Shown one piece after another: positions 1-61,620 of a stretch of DNA of 64,000 nucleotides; the stretch's first letter is position 1; each line of letters begins with the position of its first letter. The notes beneath the pieces were generated by a model. The model saw only the letters and a program-made list of their open reading frames with translations, had not been told where the DNA came from and did not search any database. Both the position numbers and the translations under genes were made by a program. The DNA comes from Octopus sinensis (lineage: Eukaryota), in contig NC_043013.1 of the NCBI RefSeq assembly GCF_006345805.1, forward strand, positions 47,182,001-47,246,000. The letters run 5' to 3'.

Positions 1-216
1 TGAGCGAAAACACCTAAGCTCCACGCGGCTCCGGCAGAAGGTAACGGCGAAACTTCTGCTGATTCTTTCGCCACAACTTTTTCTCCACTGTTTCCTCCTG
101 CATCTTGCAGCTCAACTGCGACGGACCGGCGTCCCGTCCAGGTGGGGAACCTATACGCAAAGAAACCGCGAAGCCGGCCCTTATGAACCAGGCATGTCTC
201 GAGAAGGAACAAACAA
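1..216 (+). mobile_element. SINE family B, 5'-clipped by window edge, variant with V-SINE-like 3' module
   Basis: Shares 'gagcgaaaacacctaagctccacg...ctccggcag' with family B copies at 15117 and 26004; continues into 'ctgcgacggaccggcgtcccgtccaggtgggg...aacaaacaa', also seen inverted at 44030-44240. Confidence 0.75.
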
Positions 217-13233: not shown

Positions 13234-13603
13234 GGATCTTTTCGGTTTGAACGGCAGTTTTGTAAAATAATTTCCACGTAACTAAACACTTTTAAACTTC
13301 GTATACTGGTAGAATGTGTTTATAAAACATCTTTCTCTCTTGGCTTTATTAAGAAAATTCTATAATTTGAAACATATTTGTTGTTTTTTTTCTTTAATTT
13401 CTGCAATTTCAACCAATCAATGACGTCTATTAAAGTGAAAACATTCTGTGCCGTATGAATATGTCCCTCGTTTAAGAAACAGATTGGGTTTATTTACATT
13501 TGTGAAGAAAAAAAGATACCCTTTCCCCCACCCCTAACCCTAACCCTAACCCTAAAACATTGAAATGCAATAGATCGATACTAATTATGGATGACAAAGA
13601 TCC
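13234..13603 (-). mobile_element. TTAGGG-containing MITE, one TIR mostly deleted
   Basis: GGATCTTTTCGGTTTGAACGGCAG left TIR, right end only AAAGATCC; TSD TAATCGAT on both sides. Confidence 0.9.
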
Positions 13604-21154: not shown

Positions 21155-21574
21155 GGATCTTTTCGATTTGAACGGCAGTTCTTTCTAGCGGTGTCATATG
21201 AAATTGTCACCCATAATTATGACCCTAGTATCGATCTATTGCATTTCAATCTGTTTAAGGATTAGGGTTAGGGGTGGGAGAAGGGTATCTTTTTTTTCTT
21301 CACAAATGTAAATAAACCCAATCTGTTTCTTAAACGAGGGACATATTCATACGGCACAGAATGTTTTTTTACCTCAATAGACGTCATTGATTGGTTGAAA
21401 TTGCAAAAATTGAAGAAAAAACAACAACAAATATCTTACAAACTATAGAATTTTCTCAATAAAGCCAAGAGTAAAAGATGTTTTCTAAACACATTCTACC
21501 AGTATACGAAGTTTAAAAGTGTTTAGTTACGTGGAAATTATTTTAAAAAACTGCCGTTCAAACCGAAAAGATCC
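21155..21574 (+). mobile_element. TTAGGG-containing MITE (Merlin-like ends)
   Basis: ~26 bp TIRs GGATCTTTTCG.TTTGAACGGCAGTT; 8 bp TSD TCTTCTCG. Confidence 0.92.
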
Positions 21575-21599: not shown

Positions 21600-22570
21600 G
21601 TGCTCTATATCTGCGCGTCTTTCTCGGGCAGCTTGTAACCGTATTTCTTGTGAACCTAGATTTTAGGCTAAATTACCCCTTAGAAACAAATACCATTTTT
21701 TAAAGTGAGCAGACGATGAATAATTGCACTTAAGCGTCTGCGATGGTCTCTATAAAAAAATTAGGGATCCTTTCGGTTTCAACGGCAGTTTTTAACATAA
21801 TTTCTAGGTAACTAAAAAATTTTAAACTTCGTATACTTGTAGAATGTGTTTATAAAACATCTTTTTCTCTTGGCTTTATTGAGAAAATTCTATAGTTTGT
21901 AAGATATTTGTTGTTTTTTCTTCAATTTCTGCAATTTCGACCAATCACTGACGTCTATTGAGGTGAAAACATTCTGTGCCGTATGAATATGTCCCTCGTT
22001 TAAGAAACAGATTGGGTTTATTTACATTTCTGAAGAAAAAAAATATACCCTTCTCCCCACCCCTAACCCTAACCCTAAAACAGATTGAAATGCAATAGAT
22101 CGATAATAGGGTCATAATTATGGGTGACAATTTCATATGACACCGCTAGAAAAAACTGCCGTTCAAACCGAAAAGATCCAAAATTAGTTCAATAAAAAAA
22201 AGTACTTTTCAATGTCAACACACCACCACCACCACCACCGCCGCCGCTATCTGCTCCTCTCTCTCAATATAACTGCTTCCCCTGTCCAGCTCTAACCACG
22301 TAATAAATATTCCCTCCCAACCCCACCGCACGTTGCTAGCACTTCTCTTTCTCTGTCTTTTTCTCTCATCGTCTTTTTCTCTCATTTCTGCCTCTGCTTT
22401 CAGCTGACCATGTGACCATTTGGCCTAAGTGTATTAATCCCCTTTCCCTACTTTTCCTCTCTTCTTTCGTCACTCCTCTCCCCTCTCTCCCACTCTTAAC
22501 CTGCCTCTCACTCACTCCACCTCTACCTCTTTAACTAACGGACGAACGAACAAGCAGATTATTATATAGA
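21600..22570 (-). mobile_element. Probable non-autonomous Helitron-like element interrupted by a MITE
   Basis: Minus-strand start A|TCTATATAATAA followed by a (GTTC/GTCC)n-like tract is typical of Helitron 5' ends; internal gcagacg...cgtctgc hairpin; 3' end decayed. Confidence 0.45.
21765..22179 (-). mobile_element. TTAGGG-containing MITE (Merlin-like ends)
   Basis: TIRs as above; 8 bp TSD AAAATTAG; opposite orientation to the 21155 copy. Confidence 0.92.
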
Positions 22571-44029: not shown

Positions 44030-44034
<5 letters not shown>

Positions 44035-44240
44035 TGTTTGTTCCTTTTCAAGCCATACCTGGCTCATAGGGCCAGTTTTCCTGGTTTCCTTGGCGTATAG
44101 GTTCTCCACCTGGACGGGGCGCCGGTCCGTCGCAGGAGAGCTGCAAGTTGCAGGAGTAAAGATTGAGAGAAAGTTGTGGCGAAAGAGTCAGCAGAAGTTC
44201 TCCATTACCTTCTGCCGGAGCCACGTGGAGCTTAGGGCCC
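44030..44240 (-). mobile_element. SINE family B variant with V-like module, 5'-truncated
   Basis: Reverse complement of 12-216. Confidence 0.75.
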
Positions 44241-44425
44241 CCCGTGCAGGACAGAATCCCCTCCCTTCGTCCCTTCGTTTTAAGCTTCTTGACAAAGCCC
44301 TCTACTGTCCTCCCTTATGGGAGAGGACCACAAATTCTTATTCCGTATCACGGGGGTGATGTAAAATTTCCATCTTTAGTGGCACAACTCCCACCAAAGA
44401 TGCTTCGGGACACACCGGCAGTGTG

Positions 44426-45045
44426 TCACAACCCACCTGTGATGTCCCATTTTTCTTTTTCTTTATTTTTTTCCTTTGAGTTCCCCTCCCTCCCTCCCGC
44501 AACCCTCGGATCCTCCGGTGGGCAACTATTGTTGTTCACCTTTCGATCTTTTCCTTTTTTCAAGGAGTTTTCCACCTCCTCGACATTCTCCTTCTCTCTC
44601 TCCAATGAGGTAGCAGGGAGCGGTATTTTTATCAACTGCTCCAGGACCTTATTTTGGTCCTTACGACTGTTCATTTTGATATGACCCAGTTCCAGGCACA
44701 TCGACACTTGGGAATGTCTCTCAAGCATCAACGGATACCTAGACACGGCCATTCCCCAAAAATCTAGAAATACCAGATTTTCGGCTGATTGGGTCCATAG
44801 GATCAAAACAGGTTTTGACCCCTCCCAATCAGCCGCAGGCAGAATATTCACATTGAGGAGCTTGGTACTGCTCCCACCCAGACCCCGGCGGATAGTATCT
44901 TCTATCCACTCGGTCTCAAATCCGGGTGGCAAATCGCCGGCCCAAGCCCTCGTTAACTTCTTCCCACAATAAGTGGCAAGGAACAAAATTTCCTTGCCCT
45001 CCAGGAGCAAGGAAAACAGGGTTCTTAGCACACGACCACGCCTGC
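44426..45045 (-). mobile_element. Probable L1/Tx1-like ORF1 (gag-like) remnant, ~200 aa open frame
   Basis: FLATYCGKKLTRAWAGDLPPGFETEWI..., degenerate zinc knuckle (SMCLELGHIKMNS), then a charged low-complexity tail; GC-richer than flanks. Confidence 0.45.
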
Positions 45046-45061
45046 GCCTACATACACACAC

Positions 45062-45113
<52 letters not shown>

Positions 45114-45301
45114 TATATAAAAGGGCTTAGTAAAATAAATTACTTTGCCGCATACTGAACTCATTAGAAATAGTAGCTAAAAAAAACTTTTTTCAAACTA
45201 TTTCTAATACTTAAAGAAAACCTCTCTCATATAGTGTTTGCTCAATTCAACTCACGAAAGTATGGGGGTAAAGACATTAAAAAATCAAATGCAAAGGTTA
45301 T

Positions 45302-45352
45302 TGAGAACGTACGTTTCAAGATTAGTCAATCGACATTTCTATCATCAGCTCA
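45302..45352 (-). ncRNA. Minimal type I hammerhead ribozyme (inverted copy)
   Basis: Minus strand tgag-CTGATGA-tagaaatgtcgattgactaatctt-GAAA-cgtacg-TT-ctca. Confidence 0.7.
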
Positions 45353-45584
45353 GAACTCCTTGGTTTGGATTTGAAAACACTGAAAGTGGGAGCATACCCT
45401 TTCGGCTTCTTATCGCTTCTGAAGATCTGCTCGAACCTAACAGTGCCAGGGGGGAGAAGAAATTCTTCGCTTGCATATTTGAGTTTGCTGGCACTGTTAG
45501 GTTCGAGCAGATCTTCAGAAGCGATAAGAAGCCGAAAGGGTATGCTCCCACTTTCAGTGTTTTCAAATCCAAACCAAGGAGTTC

Positions 45585-45636
45585 TGAGCTGATGATAGAA
45601 ATGTCGAGTTGACTAATCTTGAAACGTACGTTCTCA
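45585..45636 (+). ncRNA. Minimal type I hammerhead ribozyme
   Basis: tgag-CTGATGA-tagaaatgtcgagttgactaatctt-GAAA-cgtacg-TT-ctca; stem I tgag/ctca, stem II aga/tct plus gtcg/tgac, palindrome AACGTACGTT at stem III; predicted cleavage after 45632 (GUU). Confidence 0.75.
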
Positions 45637-46143
45637 AATAACCTTTGCATTTGATTTTTTAATGTCTTACCCCCATATTTCGTGAGTTGAATTGAGCAAA
45701 CACTATATGAGAGAGGTTTTCTTTAAGTATTAGAAATAGTTTTTAAAAAGTTTTTTTAGCTACTATTTCTAATGAGTCAGTATGCGGCAAAGTAATTTAT
45801 TTTACTAAGCCCTTTTATATAATGTAATAATTTGGAATTCGCCTTAAATGGTCCCTTTGCATACTGAATACTTGGTGAAATTGATTAATAATTAATTAAT
45901 TTACCCTCAATTGTTGATTGAAATTATATTCATCTCTCTATATTTAATGCCTCGGATTTTACCGAAAAAAGCATAGGGTTTACTGATTTTAACCCACGCT
46001 GGTGGAAAGGGAAGAGCAGAAATTCTTCGCTTGCATATTTGAGTTGCTGGCACTGTTAGTTTCGAGCAGATCTTCAGAAGCGATAAGAAGCCGAAAGGGT
46101 ATGCTCCCACTTTCAGTGTTTTCAAATCCAAACCAAGGAGTTC

Positions 46144-46195
46144 TGAGCTGATGATAGAAATGTCGAGTTGATTAATCTTGAAACGTACGTTCTCA
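46144..46195 (+). ncRNA. Minimal type I hammerhead ribozyme (second tandem copy)
   Basis: Same motif; predicted cleavage after 46191. Confidence 0.75.
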
Positions 46196-46478
46196 AATAA
46201 CCTTGCATTTGATTTTTTAATGTCTTTACCCCCATACTTTCGTGAGTTGAATTGAGCAACAACTTATGAGAGAGGTTTTCTTTAAGTATTAGAAATAGTT
46301 TTTAAAAAGTTTTTAGCTACTATTTCTAATGAGTTCAGTATGCGGCAAAGTAATTTATTTTACTAAGCCCTTTTATATAATGTAATAATTTGAATTCGCC
46401 TTAAATGGTCCCTTTGCATACTGAATACTTGGTGAAATTGATTAATAATTAATTAATTTTACCCTCAATTGTTGAAAT

Positions 46479-46511
<33 letters not shown>

Positions 46512-48071
46512 GTATATATAATATATATATATGTATGTATGTATGTATACATAAACGTAAATATATGTATGTTTATGTTTATATGTATAAATAATATAAT
46601 ACATATGTGTATATATATATAGATATATATATATATATAATATATATATATATGTATACATAGTAGTATGATACATATGCCCCGTCTGTATTCTTGTGCA
46701 TTCTGTATTTTTATTAATACGTATGGACTGGAGATATTGTTGTTTTGCTTGTCTGGAACCATCATTAAGAAAATGTAGGAGTGCAATTTGTGTGACTGGT
46801 TCTGTTTTTCTTACGATAGTGTGCTTACATTTAGTTGAAGAGAAATTAACCTTTGATGATATTGATCATAATTCGAATATGGAAATAACTATTTGCTGCC
46901 GACATGGAGAAAAAATACATAGAGCAGACAATTTCATCCAGGAACGGTTGATATTTTCTGCTCAAACAGCTTACTTAGTGGTGAAAAATTGTCTGGTGAA
47001 GAAAATAATAGCAATATTTATTAAATATTACATGCATAAAGAATAATAAATAGATAACATTTTATAAACAAGATGGAACTATTGTGATTGGAAAATATAA
47101 ATATAAACATTTTTCTTTAAATGGAAACTTTCAGCAATTTAAAAGTGTTCCACAAGTTTTCTTTGTTAATTCTGTTTTTATCTTTAATTGCATACATACT
47201 TATTTCGGTTTCTATATGTCTGTATATTATTTTGAGCAATGTAGTATAGGTAGTAATATCTCGTTGCAAACTTGTAAACAGGTTTCGATTTCCAGTTCCA
47301 GTTATTTGACTGCTTTTTACACAACTTCCTTTCTTTCCTTCTTTGTAATAAAGTTGACTGGAATGACCGTGAATGAAGCTTGTGTTTAGGTTGGTTATGA
47401 CCACACTTTGAATGATGAAAATAATTCCTATCCGTAAGTACTTTCCGTAATTCATCCGGAATTCCAAACCGTAAGACTTTTGAAATTTTTTGTTCGTAAT
47501 GTCGTTCTTGTAGACATCGGAGGAATGAATCTTATAAAATATCTACGTTCATTCATGACCATATATACTGAATACAGGTCATGAACATCTGGAAAGACAG
47601 AGTCAGTGAGTCTATTAAACTAGAAATAACAAATCTCTGTAGCAGTGAAGAGATATTACTATGATAAAACCTCTAGTGACTGGGATATGTCGAAAGACTA
47701 GATAAAACCCAGTAAGATGAATACTAAATTTACGAATGGCGCGAGATACGGGTCATCAAAGTAGAACTCGACTTGAGAAGACTGCATACTGATAGCCATA
47801 AGTGACAAAGTAAGCCAGGATAAAAAGCTTTGAAGGAGAGTGATCCGTTGCAGACACCGTGACTCATTCATACAGAGAGTCATCAGTGATATTGATGAAC
47901 AGCTTACGATAATGAATGTCATCTTAGATGTTTATCGATCAAGCTTGTACTTGTAATGATCAGTCACGTTTGCTAACTAGTAATTCAAAACTTCAATAAC
48001 TGATAGTGTTCTGTCAACTAATTCATAGTTTGTAGCTACGTATTTATTATTTACGTCATTAATACATTTTT

Positions 48072-52126: not shown

Positions 52127-52710
52127 GGCGGTGAGCTGGCAGAAACGTTAGCACGCCGGGTGAAATGCGTAGCCATATTTCGTCTGCCGCTACGTTCTGA
52201 GTTCAAATTCTGCCGAGGTCGACTTTGCCTTTCATCCTTTCGGGATCGATTAAATAAGTACCAGTTACGCACTGGGGTCGATGTAATCGACTTGATCCCT
52301 TTGTCTCTCGTTGCTTGTCTTCTCTGTGTTTAGCTCCTTGTGGGTAATAAAGAAATAAGTATTTCGTCTGCCTTTACGTTCTGATTTCAAATTCCGCCGA
52401 GGTCGACTTTGCTTTTCATTCTTTCGGGGTCGATTAAATAAGTACCGGTTACGCACTGGGGTCGATATAATCGACTTCATCCGTTTGTCTGTCCTTGTTT
52501 GTCATCTCTGTTTTTAGCCCCTTGTGGGTAGTAAAGAAATAGGTATCTCGTCTCTTTACATTCTGAGTTCAAATTCAACCGAGGTGGACTTTGCCTTTCA
52601 TCTTTTCGGGGTCGATAAATTAGGTACCAGTTGCATATTGGGGTCGATCTAATCGACTGCCCCCCCTCTTCCAAAATTTCGGGCCTTTTACCTAGAGTAG
52701 AAAAAAAATA
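52127..52710 (+). mobile_element. SINE family C head plus three tandem body units
   Basis: Units restart at 'tat(t/c)tcgtc' directly after tail 'aaagaaata(a/g)g'; last unit has the alternative tail. Confidence 0.85.
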
Positions 52711-58639: not shown

Positions 58640-59272
58640 TTTCTATTAAAGGCACAAGGCCCCGAATTTTGAGGGAAGGGACTAGTCGATTACATTGACC
58701 CCAGTGTTTCAGTGGAACTTAATTTATCCAAATCATAAGGATGGAAGGCATAGTCGACCTCGGCGGAATTTGAACTCAGAACGTAGCGGCAGACGAAATA
58801 CCTATTTCTTTACTACCCACAAGGGGCTAAACACAGAGAGGACAAACAAGGACAGACAAACGGATTATGTCGATTACATCGACCCCAGTGCGTAACTGGT
58901 ATTTAATTTATCGACTCCGAAAGGATGAAAGGCAAAGTCAACCTCTGCGGAATTTGAACTCAGAACGTAACGGCAGACGAAATACGGCTACGCATTTCGC
59001 CCGGCGTGCTAACGTTTCTGCCAGCTTGTCGGCGATAAATATATATTTCTTTATTACCCACAAGGAGCTAAACACAGAGGGAACAAACAAGGACAGACAA
59101 ACGGATTAAGTCAATTACATCAACCCCAGTGTGTAACTGGTACATAATTTATCGACCCCGAAAGGATGAAAGGCAAAGTTGACCTCGGCGGAATTTGAAC
59201 TCAGAACGTAACGGCAGACGAAATACAGGCTACGCATTTCGCCCGGCGTGCTAACGTTTCTGCCAGCTTGTC
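58640..59272 (-). mobile_element. Tandem cluster of SINE family C units
   Basis: Full copies ~59045-59272 and ~58803-59032 plus a body unit with alternative tail at 58640-58802. Confidence 0.85.
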
Positions 59273-59329
59273 GGCAATAAATATAATTAAATTTAAATAG
59301 TCGTTCCCTTATAAAACATTACAAAAGTG

Positions 59330-60597: not shown

Positions 60598-61620
60598 TTT
60601 TTTTTTTTTTTCATAAATCATATCTTGTGATGCAATAGGACACATTGTTACTGATAATACCTTGGGTCACAGTATGTTTTGGATCTTTCAATAATTGGAT
60701 ACCGGATTTTTTCGGTTTGAACGGCAGTTTTTTCTAGCGGTGTCATATGAAATTGTCGCCCATAATTATGACCCTACTATGGATCTATTGCATTTCAATC
60801 TGTTTTATGGTTAGGGTTAGTTAGGGTTAGTCAGGGTTAGGGTTAGTTAGGGTTAGGGGTGGGGGAAGGGTATCTTTTTCTTCACAAATGTAAATAAACC
60901 CAATCTGTTTCTTAAACGAGGGACATATTCATACGGCACAGAATGGTTTTTTTTTACCTCAATAGACGTCAGTGGTTGGTTGAAATTTCAGAAATTGAAG
61001 AAAAAAACAACAAATATCTTACAAACTATAGAATTTTCTCAATAAGCCAAGAGAAAAAAGATGTTTGATAAACACATTCTACCAGTATACGAAGTTTAAA
61101 TTTTTTTAGTTATCTAGAAATTATATTAAAAACTGCCGTTCAAACCGAAAAGATCCTTGGATACCTTCACACGCTGACCCAGCCAGTATTAAGCAATCCC
61201 CAAGTTGTATCAATTTGGCTCTATCCCAAGTAGCACTAACCCATCTGGGGCTCAAGCATTTGCTGATCCACAGCCACCTTGAAGCATCCTCTTCTTCCCA
61301 TGTCACTGCCATTCAACCAACAGGTCATTTGAGATGCCCAGTATATTAAAAGCTCTGGAGAGGGAGTGGCCTGCAAACACTCTGTTTCCCACTTCAGTGG
61401 CATCATATGTTATTCGCTTTGCTTTCTTTAGACATAACTGCATGTGCTTAATGTATAGTTTGATCTTTTCTCTTATTCACCTGCTCAATATAATCGTCCA
61501 AGAGAATGTAATGTTCTAATATAATTTGACGACATTTAGCATGAGGGTCAGTGGCAAGTGGTGACACATTTCTACCCTGTCCAATTCAAATACTGAATAA
61601 ACATTGAAGCAACGCAGTTT
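60598..61620 (-). mobile_element. Hero-clade (R2 group) non-LTR retrotransposon 3' fragment with poly(A), interrupted by a MITE; may extend to ~62000
   Basis: Minus strand RQIILE..ITFSW..DYIEQVNKRK, EVGNRVFAGHSLSRAFNILGIS, EEDASRWLWISK; 3' UTR continues across the MITE to the T-tract at 60598-60611. Confidence 0.75.
60704..61156 (+). mobile_element. TTAGGG-containing MITE with expanded repeat tract
   Basis: TIRs; 9 bp TSD TTGGATACC. Confidence 0.92.

Follow-up and report, generated by a model that had tools for sequence, protein, structure and literature searches.

Penelope-like elements (PLEs) leave a set of marks on insertion: a partial tandem, an adjacent inverted 5′-truncated copy, a tail and a preference for (TA)n (Craig et al. 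2021, PMC8557442). Most PLE insertions are 5′-truncated and comprise terminal repeats only, and pairs of hammerheads on opposite strands, 100–700 bp apart, have been described as truncated PLEs (PMC4209133). The hammerheads themselves are minimal, with a stem I of 4–5 bp, an extra nucleotide after A9 and a palindromic stem III; in the supplement of the same paper we counted U17 by eye in 20 of 44 rows, including all three mollusc rows. They cleave poorly even as dimers (PMC4209133), a low activity also noted in review (PMC6765202), and of nine Xenopus dimers one cleaved and eight did not (bioRxiv 10.64898/2026.07.22.740005). Naiad PLEs have spread without canonical hammerheads, and cephalopod Naiads appear with (TA)n in four supplement rows (PMC8557442). 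In D. willistoni, a 450-bp hammerhead unit labelled SINE forms tandems of up to 85 (Fig. S5A, PMC4209133), and in the row for this species in Fig. S3 the base of stem II has three pairs as well as U.U, with no G10.1–C11.1 pair.

Circles have been shown for the retrozymes of coral, mussel and axolotl, which carry canonical hammerheads, and one axolotl type has a U.U base to stem II (PMC7229834; PMC8967140 and PMC7761336 are background only). From co-occurrence and pLTR similarity, a 2026 preprint argues that animal retrozymes are non-autonomous PLE derivatives; it calls the mechanism of their mobilisation open and notes that invertebrates have hardly been examined (bioRxiv 10.64898/2026.07.22.740005). 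A multi-copy cephalopod unit with a PLE-marked insertion is a test case for mobilisation of retrozymes by PLEs. Octopus vulgaris has 190 PLE families, which occupy 6.83% of the genome and of which 31 were recently active (PMC13282606); neither 'ribozyme' nor 'hammerhead' was found in the available text and supplement of that paper. The giant squid genome gave 235 Hammerhead_1 matches, reported without context (PMC6962438), and the literature examined, in the parts available, describes no link between squid hammerheads and Octopus PLE families. Nor did we find a description of a hammerhead-bearing repeat family from octopus, or of the present family from cephalopods, in the literature outside Repbase, Dfam, preprint supplements and file 1 of PMC4209133; Lunse et al. 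2017 or the supplement of PMC7229834 may list cephalopod motifs. The original prediction knew of no description of such a family from cephalopods; with the squid matches and the Octopus PLEs already reported, the novelty is modest.

We analysed a 64,000-nt window of the Octopus sinensis genome, in which two (TA)n tracts recognized by TRF flank the insert: the insertion target on the left (45063..45111, no strand assigned; called by TRF as 45063–45119 with period 2) and a second tract on the right (46479..46662, no strand assigned). The direct part of the insert is a plus-strand tandem of 1.85 units of 559 nt (45448–46482), with the copies 559–560 nt apart. Direct copy 1 (45448..46007, +) is one full unit of 559–560 nt with 34% G+C and no coding signal, and direct copy 2 (46008..46482, +) is 0.85 of a unit. 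Across their shared span the two align with 455 identities, 4 mismatches and 14 gap positions, and the unit portion at 45929..46007 (+) occurs only once at the locus. The original prediction of about 1.8 near-identical copies across 45112–46482 within a (TA)n tract was right about the copy number and about (TA)n, which stands on both sides; the tandem, however, begins at 45448. What had been taken as its first part, 45112..45449, is an inverted, 5′-truncated copy of 0.6 unit on the minus strand, equivalent to unit positions 45488–45826 (blastn and alignment), with a minus-strand hammerhead of its own. Its 338-nt arm is identical to copy 1 at 334 of 337 aligned bases, and a 38-nt spacer that separates the inverted arms by alignment (45450..45487, +) marks the 5′ truncation point of copy 1.

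This organization is that of a PLE insertion: a partial tandem or pseudo-LTR, an adjacent inverted truncated copy at the 5′ side and a (TA)n target, all as described for the pseudo-LTRs and insertions of EN+ PLEs (PMC4209133, PMC8557442). With the inverted copy, which had been missed, the link to PLEs is stronger than was first argued. There is a 3′ extension as well, but the right end of copy 2 reaches 98 nt beyond the end point of the inverted arm, whereas the published PLE tail is 30–40 bp. Both outer ends of the insert fall on TATA-like unit letters that merge with the (TA)n tract, and a (TA)n target allows no target-site duplication to be read.

The three copies are a mosaic: the inverted arm shares its state with copy 1 at eight places and with copy 2 at three, and five states are common to copies 1 and 2. 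Such a mosaic could also arise from errors of assembly or from later repair between the arms. Copies 1 and 2 appear to differ by more than would be expected if one circle had been copied round once, some of their differences probably being assembly errors. At 45501, copy 1 and the inverted arm have G in common where the family has T at 99.8–100% of depth; at 45744, T is common to copies 1 and 2 where A makes up 96–98% in the sequencing runs X1 and X2.

In each of the three copies the catalytic core is complete and includes U16.1 and H17; stem I measures 4 bp and a palindrome is present, as had been predicted for the tandem copies. Hammerhead 1 (45585..45636, +) has stem I at 45585–88/45633–36, core segments at 45589–95 and 45621–24, a weak stem II at 45597–45619, a palindrome at 45624–31 and U17 at 45632. 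Hammerhead 2 occupies 46144..46195 (+), and the predicted cut sites, after 45632 and after 46191, are 559 nt apart, which confirms from the motif the positions originally proposed. A third hammerhead lies in the inverted copy (45302..45352, −), with a predicted cut 3′ of 45306, and brings the type I motifs at the locus to three. There is an extra U after A9, at 45596, and stem III is two pairs closed by a palindromic tetraloop, an 8-nt palindrome in all. Stem II is weak, with 3+3 bp flanking a 3×3 internal loop and a base of U.U followed by A–U; it lacks the G10.1–C11.1 pair and does not form a long (7–8 bp) helix. In an active hammerhead, A14 and U17 stay unpaired. The 10-nt palindrome that had been proposed in place of stem III is present and takes in both residues, which leaves 8 bp of usable stem III for sharing between copies.

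We scanned for the motif with a descriptor that required the core together with a palindromic stem III and 4 bp or more of stem I. In the window it matched at 45589 (+), 46148 (+) and 45348 (−), plus an unrelated position, 4323, which we took as a chance match since shuffles of the window gave one in 3 of 60 cases; shuffles of the unit gave one in 2 of 5000. An alternative register that takes the GAAA at 45598 for the core has neither stem II nor stem I and was rejected on inspection by eye. No Rfam hammerhead family matched at E ≤ 5, at E ≤ 10 or at the gathering score; the matches to miRNA families in Rfam reflect the inverted repeat and (TA)n and all fall far under the gathering score. A metagenome scan with a 16-letter motif returned 118 loci, which we regard as chance because the full motif was present in 0 of the 118 and the best blastn E was 0.004, over 19–26 letters.

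The predicted layout places the hammerhead among the weak PLE hammerheads of dimer type, with a 4-bp stem I, a U.U base to stem II and U17. It shares with the hammerheads of EN+ PLEs the minimal type I form, the short stem I, the extra nucleotide after A9 and the often present U17 (PMC4209133); the octopus unit departs from those elements in having no RT or GIY-YIG, an extension of 98 rather than 30–40, no G10.1–C11.1 pair and a 3×3 loop in stem II. The missing pair is a known variant layout, as the D. willistoni row likewise lacks it. Indeed, by layout alone the octopus unit is closest to the D. willistoni motif, with which it shares the U.U and three-pair base of stem II, the two-pair stem III and the palindromic tetraloop; D. 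willistoni differs in its A17 (not U17), 5-bp stem I, unbroken 6-bp stem II and long arrays (PMC4209133).

The unit is best read as a PLE derivative that would work much as a non-LTR retrozyme does. It is a non-coding tandem with a G+C content below 45% (34%) and a type I hammerhead in each copy, as in metazoan non-LTR retrozymes, for which mobilisation by PLEs has likewise been proposed, and its length is within the 51–972 bp range of the retrozymes of Li, Clavereau and Pollet 2026. We have not filed it as one, because the canonical retrozyme hammerhead (6-bp stem I, 4-bp stem II) is not found, stem I being 4 bp and stem II broken, and because TRF with the settings of Li et al. 2026 called only the (TA)n tracts and not the 559-nt tandem. 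It also differs from retrozymes in its minimal PLE-type hammerhead, in having fewer than two copies and in its inverted head, a feature that we have not seen described for retrozymes in the available parts of the literature examined. Non-autonomous Chlamys PLEs such as MRC1 are also similar, being non-coding, with pLTRs, head-to-tail insertions and reliance on an autonomous PLE (PMC8557442), but they are green algal, mostly have no hammerheads and have a demonstrated 3′ similarity to an autonomous family.

The unit had been predicted to encode neither an RT nor a GIY-YIG domain, and Pfam searches bear this out: there was no match near the curated cut-off in the six frames of the unit or in the ten frames of the unit and its flanks, and nothing at the curated cut-off, and no RT or GIY-YIG, in 67 frames of the window. 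An open frame for RT and GIY-YIG, as in an autonomous EN+ PLE, is absent. The best plus-strand frame (45454–45609), the only one taken into the large searches and a weak test, gave no candidate among longer proteins; a single protein match (P0002, E 5e-4) was rejected: it is an unnamed repetitive singleton that contains internal repeats and lacks a curated Pfam match. To the left of the insert there is a decayed zinc-knuckle gag-like frame on the minus strand (aligned 45019–44486), which shows 63% identity to an uncharacterised protein of Octopus sinensis; its nearest Atlas clusters are zf-CCHC, and the first 83 residues are absent from the window. This gag-like flank is an element separate from, and older than, the insert. 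It lies between two (TA)n tracts, in a GC-richer 1-kb piece (44031–45062) that probably represents part of an older LINE-like element; within this piece, 44034–44236 is 86% like window positions 13–216.

To examine the unit beyond this locus, contigs of 4 of the 24 listed sequencing runs (X1, X2, X8 and X19, from four studies and two organisms) were placed on one unit; X8 and X19 are RNA by guess only. There were 7,341 contigs in X1, 2,325 in X2, 50 in X8 and 188 in X19, contig depth being no copy number and one run possibly being the source of the window. At 10% of depth or more, 27 places vary in X1 and 28 in X2. Thousands of variant contigs point to a diverged multi-copy repeat. All 29 unit bins were covered in all four runs, including 45929–46007, the portion that occurs once at the locus; this joins the unit start in two of the four, with five X2 contigs carrying it ahead of the unit start and one X19 contig crossing the junction. 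The tail-to-head junction is thus not private to the locus. The share of the placed sequence running on into unlike sequence was 0 in X1, 0 in X2, 0.15 in X8 and 0.03 in X19, and one X8 contig exits the unit near 45833 into (TA)n. Among the 24 of 217 loose ends listed, none enters a different long sequence except (TA)n or variant unit ends. Low-copy, ORF-bearing forms are possible given that the repeat contigs are short, that 24 of 217 loose ends are listed and that depth is no copy number.

The variants allow a view of the hammerhead across the family. Its core, described in the original prediction as intact in each tandem copy, is intact in the three copies at the locus, and in X1, where all A changes could be placed, no core A varies at 10%; however, the core variant U4>C makes up 13.6% of depth in X1 and 15.6% in X2. 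The motif (52 of 579 nt) holds 3 of the 24 placed variants in X1 (3 of the 27 being unplaced), and the run variants, which are few, gave no signal of purifying selection on it. The two listed stem II variants sit in unpaired positions, and the 8-bp palindrome is kept.

We then considered predicted folding, in equilibrium models that ignore tertiary contacts and co-transcriptional order. The monomer hammerhead fold is at −0.6 to −2.2 kcal/mol compared with best folds of −9.2 to −10.5, and the active form of the double hammerhead is at −17.3 to −19.0 compared with best two-strand folds of −27.8 to −29.0 kcal/mol, a gap of 9–11. In a predicted 45450–46482 transcript, the shared 8-bp inter-copy stem III has a probability of 0.97–1.0 while stems I and II have a probability of at most 0.04, since the core is captured by a competing hairpin; in cis, the active double hammerhead can be forced at a cost of 15.2 kcal/mol relative to the best fold. 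Where transcription takes in the whole insert, 332 of 338 inverted-arm nucleotides are predicted to pair with copy 1, burying 50 of the 52 nt of hammerhead 1. Li et al. 2026 ask for two complete motifs in succession, with fold energies below −5 kcal/mol; those here are at −6.6 and −5.7, values that belong to best folds other than the hammerhead fold and were obtained without the rnabob models of those authors. These predictions agree with the low activity published for minimal dimers and with the single active dimer in nine from Xenopus. They weaken the original proposal that a read-through transcript would release a 559-nt monomer. The G at 45608 helps to lock the core in the competing hairpin; this G is replaced by T in 42–59% of family depth and is absent from the inverted copy, and activity may therefore vary from copy to copy.

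Taken with the absence of a coding signal, the diverged multi-copy family, the recurring junction and the PLE insertion marks argue for a non-autonomous PLE derivative. We consider it likely, as judged from sequence, that the unit is a non-autonomous Penelope-like element copied in by the RT and GIY-YIG endonuclease of a putative autonomous PLE partner. Whether a ribozyme would take part in this spread is roughly an even question. The feature is real; its PLE signature is cleaner than had first been seen, and the case for active circle-making is weaker. Of the initial description, the tandem, the cores, the (TA)n context and the cut positions stand, while the inverted copy had escaped it and Rfam was negative. 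The class assignment, a non-autonomous PLE derivative with dimer-type hammerheads, is supported, and the inverted copy adds to the case.

The insert could instead be only the 5′-truncated pseudo-LTR end of an autonomous PLE, duplicated at insertion, with no independent family behind it. Truncated insertions are the commonest kind and opposite-strand hammerhead pairs at 100–700 bp are known from them (PMC4209133); moreover, an exit into an ORF might be hidden by the short contigs, and X8 does show an unlike run-on of 0.15. Against this, past the 3′ end of copy 1 there are 79 nt and then re-entry at the unit start, with no ORF. The same junction recurs in X2 and X19, unlike run-on is 0 in X1 and X2, the 24 of 217 loose ends listed show no exit to other long sequence, and there is no protein remnant; we therefore think this reading unlikely. 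A local duplication–inversion or assembly artefact between microsatellites, bearing a hammerhead-like motif by chance, is far less credible again: the many 1-base indels between copies do resemble long-read errors and Rfam gave no match, but the descriptor arises in only 2 of 5000 unit shuffles, the unit is multi-copy with the same junction in runs of two organisms, and variants distinguish the three copies from one another.

Other readings concern the role of the ribozyme. A non-autonomous PLE derivative might spread through linear tandem transcripts, its hammerhead being inactive or dispensable and the motif a relic or an RT-recognition signal; only the role of the ribozyme would separate this from the explanation that we prefer. 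The predicted misfolding, the U4>C variant at 14–16% of depth, the lack of variant depletion in the motif, published motifs that cleave little or not at all and the spread of Naiads without canonical hammerheads (PMC8557442) all speak for it, whereas the core is intact in three of three copies, no core A varies at 10% in X1, the stem II variants are in unpaired positions, the palindrome is kept and the models that predict misfolding ignore tertiary contacts. We hold it to be a serious, if less probable, possibility. Conversely, the locus might be an active retrozyme whose read-through yields an abundant 559-nt circle, as suggested by two complete motifs 559 nt apart, by the predicted inter-copy stem III and by the circles shown for the retrozymes of coral, mussel and axolotl, with a U.U base to stem II in one axolotl type (PMC7229834). 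Those retrozymes carry canonical hammerheads, however, and in a read-through transcript of the present insert the inverted arm is predicted to pair with 50 of the 52 nt of hammerhead 1 and the active fold is disfavoured, which makes such activity quite improbable. Improbable, too, is an undescribed high-copy octopus retrozyme family with the full PLE signature that has moved through unit-length circles and whose hairpin-rich RNA is A-to-I edited, the inverted arm and the editing switching individual copies on or off. If that were true, the octopus family would be direct structural proof that PLE machinery moves hammerhead repeats via unit-length circles.

Under the preferred reading, of a non-autonomous element copied in by a PLE partner, events might run as follows. 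A tandem donor copy would be transcribed and a PLE endonuclease would nick a (TA)n tract, where AT-rich stretches of the unit could prime reverse transcription; the TATA-like letters at the outer ends would be their trace. Synthesis would exceed one unit and end in a switch that makes the inverted 5′ arm. The hammerheads would act only as a slow double hammerhead, in which two copies share the 8-bp stem III, and would release unit-length RNA, which may circularise. As its inverted arm pairs with copy 1, the present insert would by prediction yield little of this RNA. Whether the template is circular or linear could be decided from how tandem copies differ at many loci. The locus would leave what is known of hammerheads and PLEs unchanged: precedents exist for the type of motif, for the architecture and for non-coding carriers in tandem.

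Some minor observations concern the 3′ part of the unit, where a hairpin is predicted at 45728..45774 (+) with a 13-bp outer stem and −15.0 kcal/mol. Variants at the paired positions 45740 (T>C) and 45762 (A>G) are two sides of one predicted pair of this hairpin (U–A to C–G or U.G). In X8, A>G changes at 45661, 45700, 45705, 45729, 45732 and 45738 reach 27–48% of depth compared with 0–12% in X1 and X2; three of the sites fall in the predicted hairpin stem, each is covered by 1–3 contigs, and position 45942 belongs to the same observation. A-to-I editing is a possible source of this pattern. We did not accept the overall excess of A>G/T>C as evidence of editing (in X8, 36 compared with 12 C>T/G>A); relative to X1 and X2 combined, Fisher tests gave p 0.09 for X8 and p 0.78 for X19.

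Elsewhere in the window, tandem repeats at 52176–52658 (184 nt, 2.6 copies) and 58796–59285 (241 nt, 2.0 copies) are built of a dispersed repeat with many occurrences in the window. There is a short degenerate TTAGGG-like tract at 60805–60858. A dispersed repeat is also present at 21204–21574 and 21765–22130, in opposite orientations ∼190 nt apart, and both of these copies match 13234–13597.
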